Notes under the pieces: generated by a model
Seen by the model: only the letters and a program-made list of their open reading frames with translations
Databases searched by the model: none
What the model was told of the DNA's origin: nothing
Position numbers and translations under genes: made by a program
Shown here: in pieces, positions 50,154 to 62,790 of the stretch
How positions within the stretch are numbered: the first letter of the stretch is position 1
Layout of the letters: every line of letters begins with the position of its first letter
DNA from: Schmidtea nova
Taxonomy: Eukaryota
Length of the DNA: 64,000 nucleotides
Direction of reading: 5' to 3'
NCBI GenBank assembly: GCA_044892505.1
Contig: CM097882.1
Span: 465,310,001-465,374,000, forward strand

Positions 50154-50407
50154 TTAATTAAATTTTACATCTATCTTTTTAATGTCGAAGATGTTAAAAA
50201 AGAATTTTTAAGTGTCTTGCAAGAAATGAAGTCTTAAGAACTCCTGCTCTAAATTATCTTCAAGGAAATGGTGTGGCCGAAGAATTCTGTTCAAAAATTG
50301 AGAAATTAGCAAAATATATTTTGAAGCATAAACTTTATGAAGAAGAAATAAAGAAATTTTTACAATTTATTTAGCTTTAAGATAAAGAAGTTAAAGACTA
50401 TCTCAAA

Positions 50408-52382
50408 ATGCAAGATTTAAAACCATTTGACAAACTAAAAGAAAGATTAAAAAGACACGATCAAGTTTCAATAGAAATTAATGCAGTGTTGTCCAAACTG
50501 TGTGCCGTAGTATGCATAGTATGTTTTAGTACTCTTGCAAATGAGTCCATGGTCCCAAGCAAACTTGAAAGACATCTCCAACAAAAACATCCAGAATTAA
50601 AAGACAAATCAAAAGATTACTTCGAAGGACTGAAAGAAAGTATGGTAAATCAAGCTAAGAAATTTAAAGCATTTACAACTTTATCTGGCCAGTTAAAAAA
50701 AATCGCACAAATGCTTGCTAAAAATAAGAAATCACATCTCGTGCCGAGTCAATTATACATCCTGCACTAACAGTAGCAGCTGGTATCATGATCGGACCTG
50801 AAGCAGCAGAAAAGTTTAAAACAATTCCGCTCTCACATCAAACAATATCACGTAGGATTGGCGATATGTCAGAAGACATTCATGAGCAGATAAAAAATCA
50901 TTTTTCGGAAGCGCAGAAAATTTTGAGAAATTGTGGGCTCTTCAAATTGATGAAAGCACAGATATTAGCAACAAAGCACAACTGTTGGCATTTTTTCGCA
51001 TCGTAAAGGATGGCAAGATTGTCGAAGAATATTTTTGTGTGATGATTTGAAGCAAACTACAACTGGTAAGGATATATTTGAATTGGTGAATAGCAAAGTT
51101 GCAATCAATGGCATGTCATGGAGTTTTTGTGTAGGTATTTTTATGGATGGTGCCCCCTCAATGCAAAGTCATAAAAAAGGATTCGCAGCATATGTCCTCG
51201 AACAAAATTCTGGTATCAAAGTAAATCACTGTATGATTCACAGAGAAATGCTTATGTCGAAAAATTTGCCAGAAAATCTTAAAACAACGTTGAACGATGT
51301 TGTTAAGATCGTAAATTACAATTTTGAATCACTTTTTTGAATCACTTTGTGAATCGATGGACTCTGACTATAAATGTCTCCTTTACCATACTGAGGTGCG
51401 CTGGCTATCCAAGGGAAAAGTTCTCGCGAGATTTATAACACTGAAAAAATTAAATAACAACTTTCTTTAGCTCACAACCTGGCACATTTAAAGTTCTCGA
51501 GCGTGATGATTGGTGGTTGAAAGTAGTATTCTTAAATGATGTTTTCGAAAAGTTGAATGCACTTAATACTAGTATTCAAGGATCATGTGAAAATGTATTA
51601 ACTATTTCTGGCAAACTAAGATAATTTCAACAAAAGCTTCAAATTTGGACTGCAAAATCCATGAACAAAGAACTTGATTGCTTTCCTGGTCTTGATTCGT
51701 CAAAAGACAAATATAATTTTTTGATTGATGTCATTGCTACACTGCAAAATCTTTCAAAAACATTCAAACAATATTTTCCAGACGTCGATACAAGTAAAGT
51801 TTCTTGGGTAATCAATCCATTTGTTGAAATATCTGAGACAAATTTGTAAGGAATTGAGCTGGAAAACCTCATTGATTTGAGAAACGATATAACTTTGAAG
51901 ATATTATTTTCTCAGAAAGAATTGTCTGAATTTTGGGTTTTTGTTAAAGACGAATATCCAAATTTGAGTAAGAAGGCAATTGAAATATTATTACAATTTG
52001 GTTCTTCTTATCTGTGTGAACTGGGATTTTCAACTCTTACCAAAATTAAATCAAAGAAGCGGGAACGTATGGTTAACATTGATCAAGAATTAAGAGTTTG
52101 TTTGTCAAAAATTCCACCACGATTGGAACTTATTTGTTCGGAACATCAAGCACATAAATCTCATTAACTATATTTTATGAATTTTTCATTCACTAATTTT
52201 TCTAAATTTAAAATTTTTTACATTAAATTTATTTCAAGTAAATAAGTTTTTCATTTCTTATTAAAAGATTAGTAAAAGTGCAATAAAAAATTGCAAATAA
52301 AGCAAAAAAAAATTTAGGTGTGCCACGAAAACTTTTAATTCAGCCAAGTGTGCCGTGGCTCAAAAAAGTTTGGACAACACTG
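50408..52382 (+). mobile_element. Degenerate hAT Buster/Charlie-type transposon, 5' end not seen
   Basis: MVPSKLERHLQQKH, IPLSHQTISRRI, IFMDGAPSM, HCMIHRE, EVRWLSKG, FGSSYLCELGFS; 3' TIR TTTGGACAACACTG ends at 52382. Confidence 0.9.
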
Positions 52383-53596: not shown

Positions 53597-54185
53597 TTAT
53601 TTATAAATATATTGTTGTGTGCGTGTACAAAATTTCATTTCAAAATTATTTACATCTAAATTATTACTCGGAATATTATTCATAGGAATATTATTCATTG
53701 TAATATTATTCGTCGGAATATTATTATTAATTTTTGGAATATTATTCTTTAGAATATTAGATATTTTTTCTAATCGTATGGATGCGGATAATATCAGTAT
53801 AATTATTAATATAAATAAACTTATATAATGTAATACAATGGCTGTTTTTTTCGTTTTCAACTGTTTGATTTTGGTATCTGACTTCATATTGTTTTTTAAC
53901 AAAAGTTTGATTTGTACTTTTTAATCTTTCAACTATTTTCATCATTATTTTGGTAATTATCTTTTCAAAGTCATTATTAATCAAATTATTTTTCGAAGGA
54001 CATTGATCACATTGTAATTTTATTTGACTGCATTCAATGTTTGAGTAAACACATATTTCATTATAACTCGCGCAAGTACTATCTTGTCTTCTAAAAGGAT
54101 GGGATGATTGACAATCTTCCAAAGCTTGTTCTCCTTCAGTATTGTGAACACATAATAATAATAAAATAACTATATTTAATTTCAT
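53597..54185 (-). pseudogene. Signal peptide, Cys-rich domain, helical region, TM and Asn-rich tail (frameshifted)
   Basis: MKLNIVILLLLCVHNTEG, six Cys in 38 residues; ORF 53597-53902 supplies TM IVLHYISLFILIIILILSASI and NNIP repeats. Confidence 0.5.
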
Positions 54186-54327
54186 TTTAAAAACAAAAAA
54201 CTAATATAAAAACTAAAATTGTTCATACTAAAATATTTATTAAATAACAATTAAGCGTATCTTGCATTGTCAACTCTCCAAATTGGAGTAACAACATCTT
54301 TTTTATCAATCTTGTACCCTTGAATAA

Positions 54328-54594
54328 TTATTGTAACGAACCAGTGTTCTTGATCCACGAATTCGATAGTTTGAAAAGCATCATGGAACCGAGTTTTCTG
54401 TTATTGATGTACATGGTTTCTTTACAAGTTAAATTAACATTGATCTTTGAAAACAATCGATTTAGTGCTATAATATCTTCTTTATCAATAATTACAGCAA
54501 GACTATCATACAAAGACTTTGTTAACTTTACCGGATAAGATAATCGAAACGGTATTTCATTAACCAAAAAATAAATTCGGCTGTCATAGTACAT
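54328..54594 (-). CDS. Hypothetical 88-aa Polinton accessory protein
   Basis: ATG ORF co-oriented with its neighbours; no motif recognised. Confidence 0.35.
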   Translation of the reverse strand: MYYDSRIYFLVNEIPFRLSYPVKLTKSLYDSLAVIIDKEDIIALNRLFSKINVNLTCKETMYINNRKLGSMMLFKLSNSWIKNTGSLQ

Positions 54595-55335: not shown

Positions 55336-55861
55336 TCATTCCGCACAATCAGGTGATTGTGGTGATTCTAATGGAAACGGACCATCTATTGTTGGTGCTT
55401 CCATATTGATTGAATTATCAATCGGTTCTGGAGTAGAGTTGGGCCATGTTTCTTTTATTTGCTCTTCGTCCTCCTCCTCAACCTTTTCCATTTGTTGAAC
55501 ATCGAATAATTTGAGGGAGTTCCTCAAAACCCAGATGTTGAACTGGCAGATTCGTTCAACACAGCTACCACATTGATAAGCACAGAGAATGTGCTCTGCC
55601 ACAACGGGTAGATCGGTATTCTGATCCGTCATGTGGTCCAGCACGATCTGGTTGATGTCGATACCAGTGAGGATCATTATCTTGTACGGGAACATTTCTG
55701 GAGCGGTGTAAACCAGAGCCGGCATCAGGTTCGGAAATAGCTCCTCCAACTTCCTGTATATCACATTCATTAATTTTTCTAAAAAAAGAAATAATATTAA
55801 ATATGAAAAATAAATAATTAAAATCCTTACGGCTTTTAATAAGAGTTTGAGTTAATGACAT
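55336..55861 (-). CDS. Two-exon gene: HxxCxxxCxxC motif and acidic/Pro-rich tail
   Basis: Exon 55861-55831, GTAAG..AG intron 55830-55779, exon 55778-55336; splicing gives in-frame MSLTQTLIKSQKLMNVIY. Confidence 0.6.
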
Positions 55862-56039
55862 AATTGTAGATATAAACTATGTCAGTTTGTTCATAGTATA
55901 TATATGAAAGAAACACACATGATTTGCAAAATGATACATACTGAACCAATCAGAATCAAGCATTCACAACATGTCTTTATTCTCGAAATACACACTCAAC
56001 CAATCAGAATCTTGCATTTCTACTGCATCGATATTGCAG

Positions 56040-56507
56040 TCATGAGTCACATGTTAGTATGAAATCAACAAAGGCTTTATCTTCGATAATTGATTTTATA
56101 TCGTTAATAATATCATCAACTATAGTTGAATAATCTTTGTTTTTTAATCCTAATATGACTAATTTCCCACTTGCAAATATATTTACACACATGGGATTAT
56201 ATTTGATATATCTCAAAGCTGGAAACAATTCTGGCTCGTAAACACACGGTATCAATTTAGATAATTCATTTAAATTACAAATAAATCCTAAATCCGCAGT
56301 TACAGTTATCGATTGAATTGATAAATCGTAAAACTTAACTTGTTCTTCACTAATAAATTCCCTGCATCCCATTATTCTATATCTTCCTGTTTTAAAGTAT
56401 ATTATTGGATATTTTCCACTTCTATCTACAATTTGCTGTGGTTTTCCATTTGGAAATTTCATGTGTGATACATCTGTCTTACCCTTGTAATTAATGTTTC
56501 TAATCAT
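56040..56507 (-). CDS. TATA-binding-protein-like protein
   Basis: Second repeat IQSITVTADLG..YEPELFPALRY..VNIFASGKLVILG and first repeat IYFKTGRYRIMG match the TBP fold; likely ATG at 56507. Confidence 0.85.
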   Translation of the reverse strand: MIRNINYKGKTDVSHMKFPNGKPQQIVDRSGKYPIIYFKTGRYRIMGCREFISEEQVKFYDLSIQSITVTADLGFICNLNELSKLIPCVYEPELFPALRYIKYNPMCVNIFASGKLVILGLKNKDYSTIVDDIINDIKSIIEDKAFVDFILTCDS

Positions 56508-56600
56508 TACTGAAAATATTTTTAAATGAAACAATTACTTTGAGAACGAGTATTTAAAACAAATATAAACAATAATATTAATTAAATATAATTTTTAAAT

Positions 56601-57224
56601 ATGGAATTAAGAAATGATGCAGTGTTTCAAATTGTTGGTCCGAGCGGGAGCGGAAAAACTTTATTTGTTTGTAAATTATTGCTATCGAAATTATTCAAAT
56701 CAAAATTCAATAAAATTTATTGGCATAGGGGTGCTGACGACGAAAGCGGAATGACTCAAGATCAATTTTGTAAAATAAAATTGACAATCATAAAAGGTTT
56801 CGATAAAAACTGGTCATCTAGATTGCGTCAAGGTGATGTTATTATCATTGATGATTTGTATCAAGAAGCAAATAAAGAAAAGGATTTCAATAATTTATTT
56901 ACGAAAATCAGTAGACATAAAGGTGTTACTGTTATTTTTATAACTCAGAATTTATTTCATCAGGGCGGCAGTCATCGAACCCGTAATTTAAATGTTCGAT
57001 ATCTTGTTGTGTTTAAAAATCCTAGAGATGCAACAGTTATTGATTTTCTGGCAAGACAAGCTTATCCTTCAAATCGTAACTTTTTGATGGAAGCCTTTCA
57101 AGATGCTACAAAATCTCCTCATGGATATATTTTCCTGGATTTTAATCAACAATGCAGTGATGATTTAAGAGTTAGAACTGATATTTTTAACAAGGAAGGA
57201 GCCATGGTTTATAAACAAAGTTAA
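56601..57224 (+). CDS. A32/FtsK-like DNA packaging ATPase
   Basis: Walker A GPSGSGKT, Walker B IIIDD, SRHKGVTVIFITQNLF, RTRNLNVRYLVVFKNPRD. Confidence 0.95.
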   Translation: MELRNDAVFQIVGPSGSGKTLFVCKLLLSKLFKSKFNKIYWHRGADDESGMTQDQFCKIKLTIIKGFDKNWSSRLRQGDVIIIDDLYQEANKEKDFNNLFTKISRHKGVTVIFITQNLFHQGGSHRTRNLNVRYLVVFKNPRDATVIDFLARQAYPSNRNFLMEAFQDATKSPHGYIFLDFNQQCSDDLRVRTDIFNKEGAMVYKQS

Positions 57225-57244: not shown

Positions 57245-57787
57245 ATGTTAATGAAATCTCGAGTAAAGTTTGAACGATTGATAAAAGCTCGAAAATCAAT
57301 GAAAATAGGTAAGAAAGCAGGTCGAAGAAAGAAATTATCAAAGAAATCCGTTACAAAATCAGTTTCAAAAACAAGTTATACGCCATCGAAAAAACTAATT
57401 ATGGATAATTTTCCCAAACAAAATCAAATTCCAATTAATTTGAAATCTAATGCTAAACAAATACATCATCGGAGTTTTTCGTTTTTAATGCATTGCTTAA
57501 AGCCCCCTGCTAGAAGAATGGGTATTCTTCAATCGTTTCCTAATTACGTTATCGATGATTTACTCGCTATTTTAATTAAAGTAGTGAGAGGTAAAATGCA
57601 TCTCAGTCCATCTAATCGACGTGTTTTGAACAAGCATAAGAAACCATTGTTGTCGCTTGTAAAAACAAAAAATCGAAAACTTATGCGTAAAATAATATAT
57701 AAACAACAAGGAGGATTTATTGCCGCATTGTTACCACTAGCTTTATCATTATTGGGAGGTGCTGGTTTATTGGGACAAAGGTCATAA
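57245..57787 (+). CDS. Basic Polinton core/virion protein precursor
   Basis: Lys/Arg-rich; C-terminal KQQGGFIAALLPLALSLLGGAG includes an adenain-type LxGG site. Confidence 0.65.
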   Translation: MLMKSRVKFERLIKARKSMKIGKKAGRRKKLSKKSVTKSVSKTSYTPSKKLIMDNFPKQNQIPINLKSNAKQIHHRSFSFLMHCLKPPARRMGILQSFPNYVIDDLLAILIKVVRGKMHLSPSNRRVLNKHKKPLLSLVKTKNRKLMRKIIYKQQGGFIAALLPLALSLLGGAGLLGQRS

Positions 57788-57790
57788 ACA

Positions 57791-58012
57791 ATGGGTCAAT
57801 CATTACCTAATTTAAATTTAAACTTTAAATCTTCTTGTTGTAATGGAGAAGATCTGGACGAACCCCAAAGACGACGCCGGTTTCGGTGGAGTCGAAAAGC
57901 TAAGGAAAAAAGTACAGAAGTCGAAACAACAGACACAAAGTTGGTTATCGGGGCAACTTGCATACAGTCTAAACAAACCGATTTTGAAACGGTTTCCAAC
58001 TCGAGCATATAA
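57791..58012 (+). CDS. Small MG-starting ORF overlapping the integrase start in another frame
   Basis: MGQSLPNLNLNFKSSCC..RRRRFRWSRK; ATG lies 3 nt after the upstream stop in AAACAATGG context. Confidence 0.4.
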   Translation: MGQSLPNLNLNFKSSCCNGEDLDEPQRRRRFRWSRKAKEKSTEVETTDTKLVIGATCIQSKQTDFETVSNSSI

Positions 58013-58892
58013 AACATATAGAATCAATGATTTGTGGCAAAGGGACTTGATGGAAATGATTCCGTATTCTGCTATTAACAAGGGATACAAGTATATTTTA
58101 ACATGTATTGATGTTTACGGTCGTTTTGCTCGAGCAATTGCAGTCAAATCTAAATCTGCTAATGACATGGCAATCGCTATTAAAACAATGATGAAAAAGG
58201 ATCGGCCAACTAATTTACAAACAGATTTGGGTAAGTTTAAATAGAAATATATATATATATATTTAATATTTTTTAGGAAAGGAATTTTACAACAGTAAAG
58301 TCAGGGAAGTTATCAAGGGAATAAATCATTATTCGGTATTCTCGCAATTCAAAGAAGCTCATGTCGAGAGATTTAATCGAACTTTGCGTGATCGATTGAA
58401 AAAATACTTTGTTTTAAAGGCAATAAAACCTGGATTAATGTTTTACCTCAAATGATTCACAGTTATAATCATAGTGCTCATCGGGGTATAAATGGTAGGA
58501 AACCGGTCAAAGTAGTTGATACTGAAAATATTTTGAGTGATACGAAAATAAAGAAACCAAAATATAAAATTGGTGATCATGTTCGAATTAGCAAAATTAG
58601 TGCATCGCCATTCATTAAAAATTTTGATAATAATTGGAGTGATGAGGTATATCAAATATCGAAAGTCAAAACAGTGCAGAATCCTTTCATGTATACTATT
58701 TGTGACTCTGATAACAATATAATCAGCGGGAAATTCTATGAACAAGAATTACAAGTTATTCCCCCGCCGACAATATTTAGAATTCAAAAAATCCTGAAAT
58801 CTAAAATGGTGGGTAAGAATAAACAATACTATGTCAAGTGGCATGGATATAAAGAACCATCATGGATATCATCAAAAAACCTAGTAAAATGA
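57843..58892 (+). pseudogene. Polinton retroviral-like integrase with chromodomain; one intron (58231-58276), one frameshift near 58413
   Basis: GFGGVEKL, LWQRDLMEM, YILTCIDVY, spliced LQTDLG|KEFYN, VERFNRTL, YKIGDHVRI, YYVKWHGY. Confidence 0.93.
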
Positions 58893-59915
58893 ATTTTTAT
58901 ATGATTCTACCTAGCAACAGTTGTCCAGATATACATCCAGATAATACTTCCAATAATTTCATGGTCAATCTCCAAAATCCGATGTATTTGGACGGGATTT
59001 GGGAAGTCGCTCTCTTAGACTTTACATTTGTGTATAATCCATTTCCATTTTACAGTAAATCAGAAATTCGGTACAAAAAGAAAACTATACATACAAAATA
59101 TAAAAATTTGATTATTACCAATCAATTTTGTGAAGTTGATATATCTAATCCTACCGATGATATTGCTCAAATAAGTAGCGATAGGCATTCTATTTATTTT
59201 ACCTGTGATCATTTTCCCTTCACTATAACATTTGATACTTTGGCAATGGCGAAAAGAATGTGGTTAACGAAACAGAGTATTGTAAGTCTTACAGATACAT
59301 ACAAGATACCGTTACCGGCATATGGTATAGATGGTCCATTAACGGAAACAAATTCGAATAAAGATAGAGTACAAGGATGATACTGCATTTATACATACAT
59401 TTGCTGATAATTTATACATATCGAAACTGGATGAAATGCAATCATATTTTATTCTAAATTTTGCAAGTATTTTTAAATTGTTGGAATTGGTAGATGATAC
59501 TTACTTCAAATTCAGTTTGAATGCAGATGTTAGCGAAATAACCTTTCACAATAACCTAGTAAAAACATTGGGATTATCGAAAGCAACATATGCTCAAGAT
59601 GGAAGCTTCACTGTTGGAGTAAATAAACCGAAAATAATTAAACTTCATCAGCAAATGTTCATTTACAGTAATATAGTCAATCCTATAATTGTTGGTGATT
59701 CATTAGTTCCCATGTTGAAATCTGTATGGATTGAAAAATATGAACAGGATGAGGTTGTTCAAATACAAGTTGAAAATCCAATGTACTTATCTGTTTCAAC
59801 ATCCTGTATAAACAATATAGAAATAAATATCCGAGATGATAGAGGTAATTTAATAAATTTTCCAAAAAATTCAAAAACTCATTTGACTCTACATTTTCGA
59901 AAACATCATGAGTAA
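58889..59915 (+). pseudogene. Minor capsid (penton) protein, frameshift near 59370
   Basis: FYMILPSNS..PDNT..F..L..P..L.G.WEVAL N-terminus and FIYSNIV..VGD..PMLK..IEINIRD..G..I.F..TLHFR C-terminus; ATG overlaps the integrase TGA. Confidence 0.85.
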
Positions 59916-60362
59916 TCCCAATATACTTAATTCCCGATGATACTTACTTCAAATTCAGTTTGAATGCAGATGTTAGCGAAATAACCTTTCACAATAACCT
60001 AGTAAAAACATTGGGATTATCGAAAGCAACATATGCTCAAGATGGAAGCTTCACTGTTGGAGTAAATAAACCGAAAATAATTAAACTTCATCAGCAAATG
60101 TTCATTTACAGTAATATAGTCAATCCTATAATTGTTGGTGATTCATTAGTTCCCATGTTGAAATCTGTATGGATTGAAAAATATGAACAGGATGAGGTTG
60201 TTCAAATACAAGTTGAAAATCCAATGTACTTATCTGTTTCAACATCCTGTATAAACAATATAGAAATAAATATCCGAGATGATAGAGGTAATTTAATAAA
60301 TTTTCCAAAAAATTCAAAAACTCATTTGACTCTACATTTTCGAAAACATCATGAGTAATCCC
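59493..60362 (+). repeat. Tandem duplication of the penton 3' half (427 bp x2, 16-nt filler)
   Basis: 59493-59919 equals 59936-60362; filler AATATACTTAATTCCC. Confidence 0.92.
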
Positions 60363-60716
60363 GATATAATTTCATTGTACAGTAATAGTCTAACTGGTGG
60401 CGGATTACCGTATTTTATAGGTAAACAGTATGGATCAGGCTGGTTGAAAACTATTGGAAGATTTGCACTTACACTACTTAAGCGACTGGGTAGTTTTGGA
60501 ATGAAAACTGCTAAAGATGTTATAATGAAAGATCAGAAAACTTTGCCTACATTGAAAACCAATGCTATGGAGGCTGTATCCAAGGCGATACCGTCAATTT
60601 CAAATATGTTTTCCAAAAATGAACCGGAACCTGAACCGGTAGGACCAAGACGTAAAAAGGTTAGAAAACGTATAAACAAACGAATGAAAGATCATGGAAC
60701 TATATTTGAAGAATGA
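60351..60716 (+). CDS. Conserved Polinton core-like protein
   Basis: LTGGGLPYFIGKQYGSGWLKTIGRFALTLLKRLG (LxGG site and amphipathic helix), basic C-terminus. Confidence 0.7.
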   Translation: MSNPDIISLYSNSLTGGGLPYFIGKQYGSGWLKTIGRFALTLLKRLGSFGMKTAKDVIMKDQKTLPTLKTNAMEAVSKAIPSISNMFSKNEPEPEPVGPRRKKVRKRINKRMKDHGTIFEE

Positions 60717-61934
60717 TTTGCGGTAAATCTGAATTATGTCTTTTTGATCGACCATCACCTCAAGCAGTTATTGAATATGGGGTGTTTGAAGATGTTTTTC
60801 CAATGAATTCTATTACAGATAGTAGAAATGATGTTGAATTTTACATTAATGGATCGGCAACCGAATATTTGGATTTGAACGATACTTTATTATCCGTTAC
60901 TGTCAAGGTTCTAGATAAAGATAAAAATAAATTAGTTGATGCGAGTGATGTAGTGCCTAATAATTACTTGTTTCATACTCTTTTCAAAGATGCGATTCTT
61001 GGATTTAATAATATAAAAATTGAAGGTGGAAACAATACATATGCACACAAGGCCATAATCGAAACTGTTTTAAATTATACTAGCGATACAAAAGAAACTT
61101 GTCTTACTCCAATGGGATATGGTTCATCTGATGATAGGAAAAAGTGGATCAAGGGATCTAAACTTTTCAACATGTGTTCATCATTACAACTCAATTTTAT
61201 GGATCAACCTAAATACTTACTTCCCGGAGTTAATGTACATATTAGATTGAAGAGATCTGAATCTTCATTATCATTGAAATCGGCAGCTAGGAAACCAATA
61301 ATCCAATTAGTAGACGCAAAATTAATGGTAAGAATAGTTCGATGTGAATCTTCAGTTTTGGCCGGTCATCAAATTGGTTTAAATAGTAAACATGCAATTT
61401 ATCCATTAAAATCCAAAGAAATCGTATCGTTTGCAATCGGTAAAGGGGCATCGTCATTTTACAAGGAGCAAAAAATTTGGAGATAGAAGAATGCCTAATT
61501 TCATTCTTTTGGCTTTTCAAACTGAAAATCAATATAATGGATCTTATACCGAGTCTGCATCTACATTCAAACATTTCAATGTGACTTCATTATCGTTATC
61601 GAAAAATACCGATTTTCGAGAAACTTATACTCAAGATTTTGAAAATGATAATTTTAGTGCCACATATATGCAAAGTCTTGTCAGAGATTTAGGATATTTG
61701 GATAAAAACTTGAATTGTGGTATAAGTCTGGATGAATTTAAAACTAAATATCCATTCTTTACATTTGTTCTCGCTCCCGATTTTGATTTGAATCAAAGTC
61801 AAATCCCTCAAAACGGAAATTTACGACTCGATATAAAGTTTGCAAAACCCATTGATGAACCGGTTCATGTAATAATATATGGAGGTTTTGAAAATGAAGT
61901 ACAAATTACTGCCAATCGAACAGTATTAGTTTGA
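60713..61934 (+). pseudogene. Major capsid protein (double jelly roll), frameshift near 61470
   Basis: CGKSELCLF..P..Q..IE..VEFYI.G..EYLDLNDT.L, MDQPKYLLPGV, C-terminal GNLRLDIKFAKP..V.VIIYG.FEN...I..NR.V. Confidence 0.9.
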
Positions 61935-61999
61935 GCAGAGCTCAAACATTGCTAGTTTAAGTTCAAACAGTATAAATGACCAAAGTTATTATTATTATC

Positions 62000-62351
62000 A
62001 TGGAGTAAGTTTTTTATTTGATTAATTATTTATTTTTAATTAGTTCTATTCAGGTATTACAACAAGGTAAAAAACTATTGGGAAATCAATTTATTGGAGT
62101 ATTTCCCCTAGATAAAATACCTTATTTGAAAATGAATCAAGCCATCATTGTAAATACATTGGATTGCAGTTTACGTGAAACCAGATCGAATACATGTATT
62201 TGATCCCTTTGGATATTATTATCCGAATTTACTTGTTCGAAAACTTCAAACTATTGGTAAACCTATTGTGTATAATAGAATTCGTTATCAACATCCTTTA
62301 ACAATCACTTGTGGTGAACATTGCCTTGCATGGTTGAATACAATGTTATAA
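62000..62351 (+). pseudogene. Adenain-like cysteine protease; putative intron 62005-62043; catalytic His segment missing
   Basis: Spliced MDSIQVL..FIGVFPLDKIP..IIVNT, then in a shifted frame VFDPFG..VYN..YQHPLTITCGEHC; no GxHW segment. Confidence 0.8.
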
Positions 62352-62386
62352 ACAATTTATTTTAATAAATTTTATTTGAAAAAAAA

Positions 62387-62790
62387 ATGTCTTGTTATTT
62401 TATCGATATTTATGGTTATAATGAAATGGGTGGAACAACAATTAAGGAATTATGTATTATGAATGTCAATAATATTTTCACACCCCAGTATTATATATAT
62501 ACAGTGATTTATCTTTCTGGCCTGATCGTATAGAATCGTTTGAAGGACAAGATTATTTTTGCCCAAAATGTATTATGGATGATATTACAGATAAAGGAGC
62601 TATTTTCTATGTTACAGATAATGAAAAGTTGCATGTTTTGAAGAAGTATTTCCTCAAATTAAGATTAATTAAATATAATTTTAAAGAAGTTGAATATGTT
62701 CCTGAAAACATCTTATGTCCCTATAAAGATCATTGTATGTGTGCCTATAAAGGGTGCTTTTCTGCTGTTGTAGATTATTTAAAACAATAA
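62387..62790 (+). pseudogene. Polinton accessory gene, possibly DEDD exonuclease-like, frameshifted
   Basis: YFIDIYGY..TIKELCI N-terminus, IFYVTDNEKLHVLKKYF, C-terminal CPYKDHCMCA. Confidence 0.45.

Follow-up and report, generated by a model that had tools for sequence, protein, structure and literature searches.

A compact TBP-like protein of Schmidtea nova Polintons and a shared upstream word as a candidate late promoter of their virion genes

To our knowledge, the control of capsid genes in Polintons (Mavericks) is an open question. The TBP-like proteins of Nucleocytoviricota mostly come with a viral RNA polymerase. According to the accessible part of Ravarani et al. (PMC7221094), these giant-virus proteins are mostly paired with a viral TFIIB, and the N-lobe signature of eukaryotic TBPs is not conserved in them. 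The same part of that paper places the patch for TFIIA, TAF1, Brf and Mot1 largely on helix H2 of the N-lobe, and the contact with TFIIB on two glutamates of the C-lobe. Beta- and gammaherpesviruses possess another TBP mimic with a polar DNA face (vTBP; KSHV ORF24, EBV BcRF1, CMV UL87), which acts with host Pol II at late promoters that carry the variant TATA word TATT; the available text of PMC12529657 describes ORF24 as a multi-domain protein of 752 aa which functions as part of a viral complex, is devoid of the TFIIB glutamates and carries polar swaps at V122, T124, V161 and L205. Among Polinton-related midsize dsDNA viruses, MELD viruses with an adintovirus-like PolB bear the gene label 'TBP' in the Fig. 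5 legend of Starrett et al. 2021 (PMC8502044), and this label, known from the legend alone, may bear on the family described here; section 3.4 and the legend hold no analysis of a TBP protein or of a promoter motif. Finally, the engineered yeast variant TBPm3 (I194F, V203T, L205V) gains binding to TGTA, and its three altered-specificity positions contact base 2 of the box as stated in the accessible part of PMC1636458.

No mention of a TBP was found in PMC10748475, PMC8097293 or bioRxiv 2026.06.19.733378, nor any mention of Polintons in PMC7221094. Within the literature searched, subscription papers and Repbase aside, the MELD virus label is the only direct mention of such a gene, and we found no analysis of a Polinton/Maverick TBP.

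The window, that is the whole stretch of 64,000 nucleotides that was analysed, carries the TBP-like gene in a decayed Polinton copy (Table 1). Pfam matches identify a Pox_A32 ATPase, an rve integrase with chromodomain and, weakly, a DJR-like capsid protein within the window; a protein-primed PolB (DNA_pol_B_2, E 1.4e-25) with an endonuclease VII-like domain lies just outside it, and this gene content places the element among the Polintons/Mavericks. Other copies begin at a shared AGTAG terminus, which was looked for at the window copy and not found. In this copy the TBP-like gene and the ATPase are unbroken; the integrase, the two capsid genes and the putative protease are all disrupted. We assigned the names PZ-like, PW-like, minor capsid, protease and g133 as presumptive labels from position and known motifs.

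Table 1. Genes of the Polinton copy and upstream words, in positions of the window
Feature	Position	Strand	Remark
SSB-like gene, remains	54248..54594	-	intact copies predicted to have a T7 gp2.5/Enc34-like SSB fold
Cys-containing fast-evolving gene	55336..55770	-	downstream of TBP-like gene
TBP-like gene	56040..56507	-	155 aa, intact here; N-lobe without helices in model
Gap between TBP-like gene and ATPase	56508..56600	.	93 bp, AT-rich (87% AT)
TGTTTTA word	56555..56561	-	upstream of TBP-like gene; word class in 15/35 distinct upstream regions
TATAAACA, candidate late promoter	56564..56571	+	37 nt before ATPase start
A32-like packaging ATPase	56601..57224	+	Pfam Pox_A32, E 1e-06
TATAAACA	57210..57217	+	inside ATPase 3' end, 35 nt before PZ-like gene
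PZ-like basic 180-aa gene	57245..57787	+	label from position
CATAAACA	57783..57790	+	before Met-Gly ORF and integrase
Small Met-Gly ORF	57788-58012	+	overlaps integrase start
rve integrase with chromodomain	57843..58892	+	frame change in window copy
Putative minor capsid gene	58862..60358	+	label from position, no Pfam match; broken, partly duplicated
TATAAACA	60250..60257	+	about 100 nt before 121-aa gene; duplicate at 59807-59814
121-aa gene	60351-60716	+	
TATAAACA	60671..60678	+	42 nt before major capsid start
Major capsid gene	60713..61934	+	weak DJR-like Pfam match; split here
Putative maturation protease, remains	61931..62351	+	label from known motifs; split
TATAAACA	62347..62354	+	40 nt before roughly 133-aa gene
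Roughly 133-aa gene (g133)	about 62387-62790	+	

From the letters of the window alone, a preliminary description had proposed a compact, intronless gene for a two-repeat TBP-like protein, and the ORF of 155 codons without intron bears this out. The Pfam TBP match (PF00352; E 4.7e-13, 49.2 bits against a curated cut-off of 22.9) covers residues 62-126, that is repeat 2 only, and hhalign gave a probability of 99.4 over 131 columns. An AlphaFold model (pLDDT 90.8, input alignment of 35 sequences) forms a saddle across the whole chain. Because it aligns over 140 residues (Z 11.8, rmsd 2.8) to the TBP of M. jannaschii, the best solved relative of the protein (E 8.6e-17), both repeats are present, as had been claimed. 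Repeat 1 is reduced, a point not raised in the preliminary description: helices are absent from the model ahead of residue 79, and both helices of the N-lobe are missing, including H2, which in canonical TBPs provides the basic patch for TFIIA, TAF1, Brf and Mot1. Among 152 proteins the span from N69 to V122 has a median of 43 residues (53 in canonical TBP) and that from V122 to E186 one of 51 (64 in canonical TBP). Some distant family members, such as P0216 and P0275, are enlarged by a further TBP repeat or by a long stretch at the N-terminus.

With cellular TBPs (yeast Spt15, archaeal TBP) the protein shares the saddle fold (Z 11-11.8), N69, the TFIIB stirrup EPELF and three of the four canonical intercalating phenylalanines. 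The latter agree with the residues initially pointed out, namely F95 and F111 of repeat 2 (F190 and F207 in yeast) and a single one in repeat 1, F38 (yeast F116), whose partner site is Pro23. By contrast, it is about 25 residues shorter, lacks the N-lobe helices in the model, has proline in place of F99, shows polar, nearly fixed swaps at base-facing positions and resides on a multicopy mobile element. The head-to-head arrangement with the ATPase across an AT-rich gap, also part of the preliminary description, is correct for the window but recurs in only two of 14 relatives with an ATPase; the other 12 have both genes on one strand. We therefore rejected it as a conserved feature and regard the divergent arrangement as incidental.

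The TBP-like gene is a stable Polinton gene and not a host retrocopy. Lack of introns is what one would expect of a recent processed copy of the host TBP gene riding in the element, but its identity to the canonical host TBP stretch is 27.5% over 69 aa, compared with 61-90% to TBP-like proteins of other element classes; the host stretch itself shows 79% identity with a canonical TBP. Besides its single canonical TBP, the host possesses several TBP-like genes of greater divergence (L139-L143; 5 top places). In a quick unrooted tree of 51 rows, for which family rows had been chosen with the family profile and labelled viral TBPs were left out, a long branch (SH-aLRT 100) sets the 37 family rows apart from all others, host TBP/TRF included. 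Together with its spread over many distinct elements, this refutes a retrocopy, to which we give practically no credence.

The TBP-like gene recurs in other copies of this Polinton. Neither of the two conditions that the preliminary description had named as refuting it, a recent host copy and absence from other copies, therefore holds. At least 150 copies with 97-100% identity occur in this genome; first-look candidates number 19,194 for the TBP-like gene and 19,163 for the ATPase, candidates not being equal to copies, and the element likely exists in thousands of copies. Three TBP-like genes met in 180 kb fetched for a control family (see below) agree with a very high copy number. Among 30 loci picked by their ATPase, a sample biased toward well-preserved copies which includes the window copy, the TBP-like ORF is intact in 28, reduced to a shortened match in one and absent from the last. 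The gene is under purifying selection, with a dN/dS of 0.146 over 21 distinct haplotypes (repeat 1, 0.115; repeat 2, 0.163). This value supersedes an earlier one of 0.078, for which copies had been chosen by TBP similarity. The flanking genes at 55336-55770 and 57245-57787 outpace the TBP-like gene and the ATPase in divergence (best-segment identities of 51-95% and 55-97%, respectively, vs 91-99%). A second TBP-like class (L147, L150) is about 60-61% identical and lies beside an ATPase that is 89-93% identical, which suggests module exchange between subfamilies.

Beyond this genome, forty homologues of the protein are 34-75% identical to it, a set that profile searches widened. A metagenome scan yielded 59 TBP-like loci. 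Core Polinton genes are present in 24 of them and element genes of any kind in 37; another element gene is seen in 17 of the 19 loci of 3 kb or more. The TBP-like gene has two locations in these metagenome loci, one close to the ATPase and one behind the capsid-protease-g133 block. Scans of viral contigs with the TBP alignment, capsid and ATPase confirmed no locus and thus supplied no TBP-less control from outside this genome.

Residues that contact DNA or TFIIB were compared in a family set of 179 out of 280 fetched proteins (minimum identity 33%, minimum aligned length 125 residues, maximum protein length 200 aa), from which twelve rows, mostly canonical TBPs, had been removed; yeast numbering corresponds to P0045 + 48, assuming no gaps. 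The intercalating phenylalanines F116, F190 and F207 are kept in 178, 178 and 179 proteins, respectively, while F99 is replaced with proline in 174. Based on these alignments, the predicted DNA-contact face is rewired, with polar swaps nearly fixed at eight base-facing positions: V71N (157), V122R (177), T124M (179), N159S (164), V161T (157), I194R (162), V203C (166) and L205N (179). KSHV ORF24 has polar swaps at several of these sites too. The three positions altered in TBPm3 are all changed, to Arg, Cys and Asn, residues other than those of TBPm3, and the phosphate-contacting Arg196 is not conserved. As in canonical TBPs, the TFIIB glutamates are kept (E186 in 170 and E188 in 177 of the 179), whereas the accessible part of PMC7221094 gives about 40% conservation for the E186 position in viral TBPs. 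At the TFIIB/TFIIA interface, which the preliminary description had proposed to check, the TFIIB side is retained and the H2 surface is gone in the model.

The bare 155-aa core with its glutamates differs from the herpesvirus vTBPs, which are large multi-domain proteins with a Pol II-binding N-terminal domain and without the TFIIB glutamates; the fold match to BcRF1 is weak (E 0.045). BFVD matches to Nucleocytoviricota TBP-like proteins reach E 1e-06, with 9-23% identity among the best matches. Unlike in those viruses, neither a viral RNA polymerase nor, with Pfam and with several element genes lacking an assignment, a TFIIB-like gene was detected in the element. The genome has six Pfam TFIIB matches at four places, none of which tracks the element; the sole two-repeat, single-exon match reads as BRF1-like, and the others have one repeat each.

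Genes of TBP-bearing elements share the word YATAAAC(A) upstream of their starts. ATAAAC was counted within 80 nt of the start in distinct upstream regions only (13 of 18 for the ATPase, 35 of 51 for the TBP-like gene); since related elements share ancestry, these counts and their P values are not independent tests. All 13 ATPase starts are preceded by the word at -31 to -47 (shuffle mean 1.2, maximum 4), and it is found before capsid (6/7), g133 (7/9), PZ-like (5/8), protease (3/3), integrase (4/9), minor capsid (1/4), PW-like (1/4; in PW-like genes the motif lies near -100) and SSB-like genes (3/13). T precedes ATAAAC in 32 and C in five of 37 instances, and A follows it in 31. The copy in front of the window ATPase is kept at 56 of 57 ATPase starts in 60 loci of this genome. 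Only three of the 35 TBP-like genes have ATAAAC upstream. Canonical TATA precedes 15 of them (shuffle mean 4.0), often 30 nt before an initiator-like word, and TGTTTWA, seldom together with canonical TATA, also precedes 15. A variant word shared by structural genes and rare before TBP-like genes is the pattern of a late promoter, lateness being deduced from that pattern.

The signal of the motif lies in position and strand, not in overall count. Virion modules of ten loci contain 62 sense sites and one antisense site, about one per gene; after removal of one near-copy the bias is 57:1, at 1.45 sense sites per kb. The strand counts in window positions 1-44000 are 9:12. Counts over whole sequences are uninformative (ATAAAC 18 vs 15.3 expected in L035; YATAAACA 21 vs 14.0 expected in the window, with five of 100 shuffles as high). 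The motif is kept at synonymous sites inside coding sequence: of the Ile-Asn pairs within the final 40 codons of an ORF, 20 of 31 use ATAAAC, and of those elsewhere five of 48, the expectation from codon usage being 10%; as the lineages are related, the P value of this contrast is no clean test. Three sequencing runs covered genes and gaps alike and were uninformative on expression.

A second Polinton family in the same genome lacks a TBP-like gene of its own and served as control. It was represented by 18 stretches of 10 kb around nine copies, in which element coverage may be incomplete; three TBP matches in these stretches all lie beside an ATPase of the first family and thus belong to nested copies. 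None of 84 control upstream regions contains the motif, some of the control capsid starts possibly being internal methionines. The 85th region, the sole one with the motif, was excluded as that of a TBP-family capsid gene (L190). Control-family sequence has 0.23 sense sites per kb and a strand ratio of 11:5, lower on both counts than TBP-bearing elements. Because the TBP-less control is one lineage, the link between gene and motif rests on one contrast. Many control-family genes (L175-L192) have TATAAAA, TAATAA or ATTAAA directly before the start codon, a start-proximal signature of another kind. The two families are found nested in or beside each other (L179/L180, L187, L189/L190).

Taking these data together, we consider it rather probable that the protein is an element-specific TBP that is expressed early and drives the late virion genes via host TFIIB and Pol II. 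It would recognise the element's own TATAAACA and bring host TFIIB together with RNA polymerase II to the virion genes and the integrase gene. Early transcription of the TBP-like gene by host TBP is proposed because many relatives have canonical TATA some 30 nt ahead of an initiator-like word, and often CCAAT as well. The three kept phenylalanines would then bend the motif and the altered face would read C at position 7, the stirrup would engage host TFIIB, and loss of helix H2 would free the protein from TFIIA, TAF1, Brf1 and Mot1. The outcome would be an early-to-late switch made of one gene. An element-specific basal factor for late (capsid) promoters had been proposed at the outset; family, selection, TFIIB glutamates, DNA face and shared motif speak for it, whereas DNA binding and late timing are what we infer. 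A more sweeping version, in which a large Polinton clade encodes such a one-gene late switch with the smallest two-lobed TBP, a stripped H2 surface, a face matched to YATAAACA and direct use of host TFIIB, is offered tentatively, as somewhat doubtful when taken as a whole.

Host factors might instead read the same motif as a weak TATA box or as a site of forkhead type, with the TBP-like protein serving as a decoy or repressor that binds host TFIIB or occupies AT-rich promoters and so dampens transcription of host or element. The forkhead consensus is RYAAAYA, with which ATAAACA agrees; the forkhead variant GTAAACA, however, occurs in none of the upstream regions examined. TATAAAC is a one-base variant of the TATA box and, judging from the title of PDB entry 1qn3, a crystal structure exists of wild-type TBP with a C(-25) TATA variant; therefore, host TBP might read the motif. 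Kept TFIIB glutamates combined with a lost coactivator surface are also what a dominant negative needs, and the reversed-looking TGTTTWA before TBP-like genes could reflect self-repression. Yet a decoy has no need of a nearly fixed new base-reading face, the TBP-less family is exposed to the same host factors and does without the motif, and a dominant-negative mimic leaves the motif unexplained. We judge a decoy or repressor unlikely, if still deserving attention. Smaller again is the probability of a DNA-bending factor for replication, integration or packaging with an unrelated motif, e.g. a poly(A) signal variant. The SSB-like gene adjoins the TBP-like gene in 17 of 59 metagenome loci, the TBP fold weakly resembles that of rolling-circle Rep proteins (Z 5.7-6.0) and many copies of the motif sit in the 3' end of the preceding gene, but such a role would not explain why the TFIIB glutamates are kept. 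The motif is not merely a poly(A) signal either, because it precedes ATPase genes that have no upstream gene on the same strand (window, L097, L132). This reading is very improbable.

Between these two in probability, and nearer the decoy, stands a further explanation in which the protein does read the motif, but without host TFIIB or a normal preinitiation complex, through reversed binding, another element protein or the polymerase of a helper virus. In the normal binding orientation base 2 of the motif is unchanged (A), yet base 2 is what the TBPm3 positions contact; given the orientation of the TBP lobes on the box, which we presume, the swaps at these positions fit better with the reversed reading TGTTTATA, i.e. 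with G at base 2 of the bottom strand, and this would aim TFIIB the wrong way. The distance of 31-47 nt between motif and ATPase start codon would leave very short leaders if transcription started 30 nt downstream. Herpesvirus and giant-virus TBPs likewise need partners, most viral TBPs have a TFIIB of their own (accessible part of PMC7221094), and several element genes lack an assignment. Against this explanation, which we find rather improbable, stand the two TFIIB glutamates, far better kept than the E186 position in viral TBPs, the failure of any Pfam TFIIB match to track the element, and the likely spliceosomal intron of the integrase, which would point to nuclear Pol II. The most frequent neighbour, moreover, has an SSB-like and not a TFIIB fold: this gene (e.g. 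L034:7988-8401), once entertained as a TFIIB-like partner and dropped, is predicted to encode an OB-fold protein similar to the SSBs T7 gp2.5, Enc34 and ASFV CP312R (Z 6.9-7.6, middling score). Pfam and Atlas gave nothing usable for it.

Polinton particles have not been observed, as stated in the accessible part of PMC8097293. With a dedicated factor and its short cognate word, the control of Polinton capsid genes becomes testable. The TBP-like protein is also a natural experiment on the surfaces that a TBP can do without and on the retuning of its DNA face while the contact with TFIIB is retained. At the very high copy number, leaky expression could touch host promoters that bear the same word. 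If the more sweeping version of a one-gene late switch is true, it would represent a third way in which viruses have independently solved late transcription, next to the herpesvirus vTBP and the TBP-TFIIB pairs of giant viruses, a natural orthogonal pair of TBP and promoter, and a control point deciding whether endogenous Polintons express their particle genes.

Several observations concern other genes of the element. The integrase contains a likely GT-AG intron of 46 nt (58231-58276). Unspliced, its ORF ends at about 132 aa in most copies read from this genome, and an uninterrupted ORF of 347-348 aa is found in one copy of this genome (L041) and in metagenome relatives (L090, L093 and L117 examined); judging from these sequences, the intron was likely gained in one subfamily. 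The Met-Gly ORF contains a Cys-Cys pair and recurs in relatives behind a motif of its own, and its product could be a lipid-modified virion protein. The putative minor capsid gene of the window copy is partially duplicated (about 59500-60358), and some elements have two tandem minor-capsid-like genes (L093, L180). The fast-evolving gene that follows the TBP-like gene gave no Atlas match, and CCAAT occurs at 55946 and at 56000. The SSB-like gene has many giant-virus look-alikes and is duplicated in L104. A Cys-rich gene without Pfam match at 53597-54185 (about 190 aa elsewhere, split here) encodes a product whose start resembles a signal peptide and whose end is hydrophobic. Immediately to the left of the element, at 50381-52167, are remains of a transposase gene with weak zf-C2H2_12 and zf-BED matches, which we take to be a DNA transposase of the hAT-like/Spin type.
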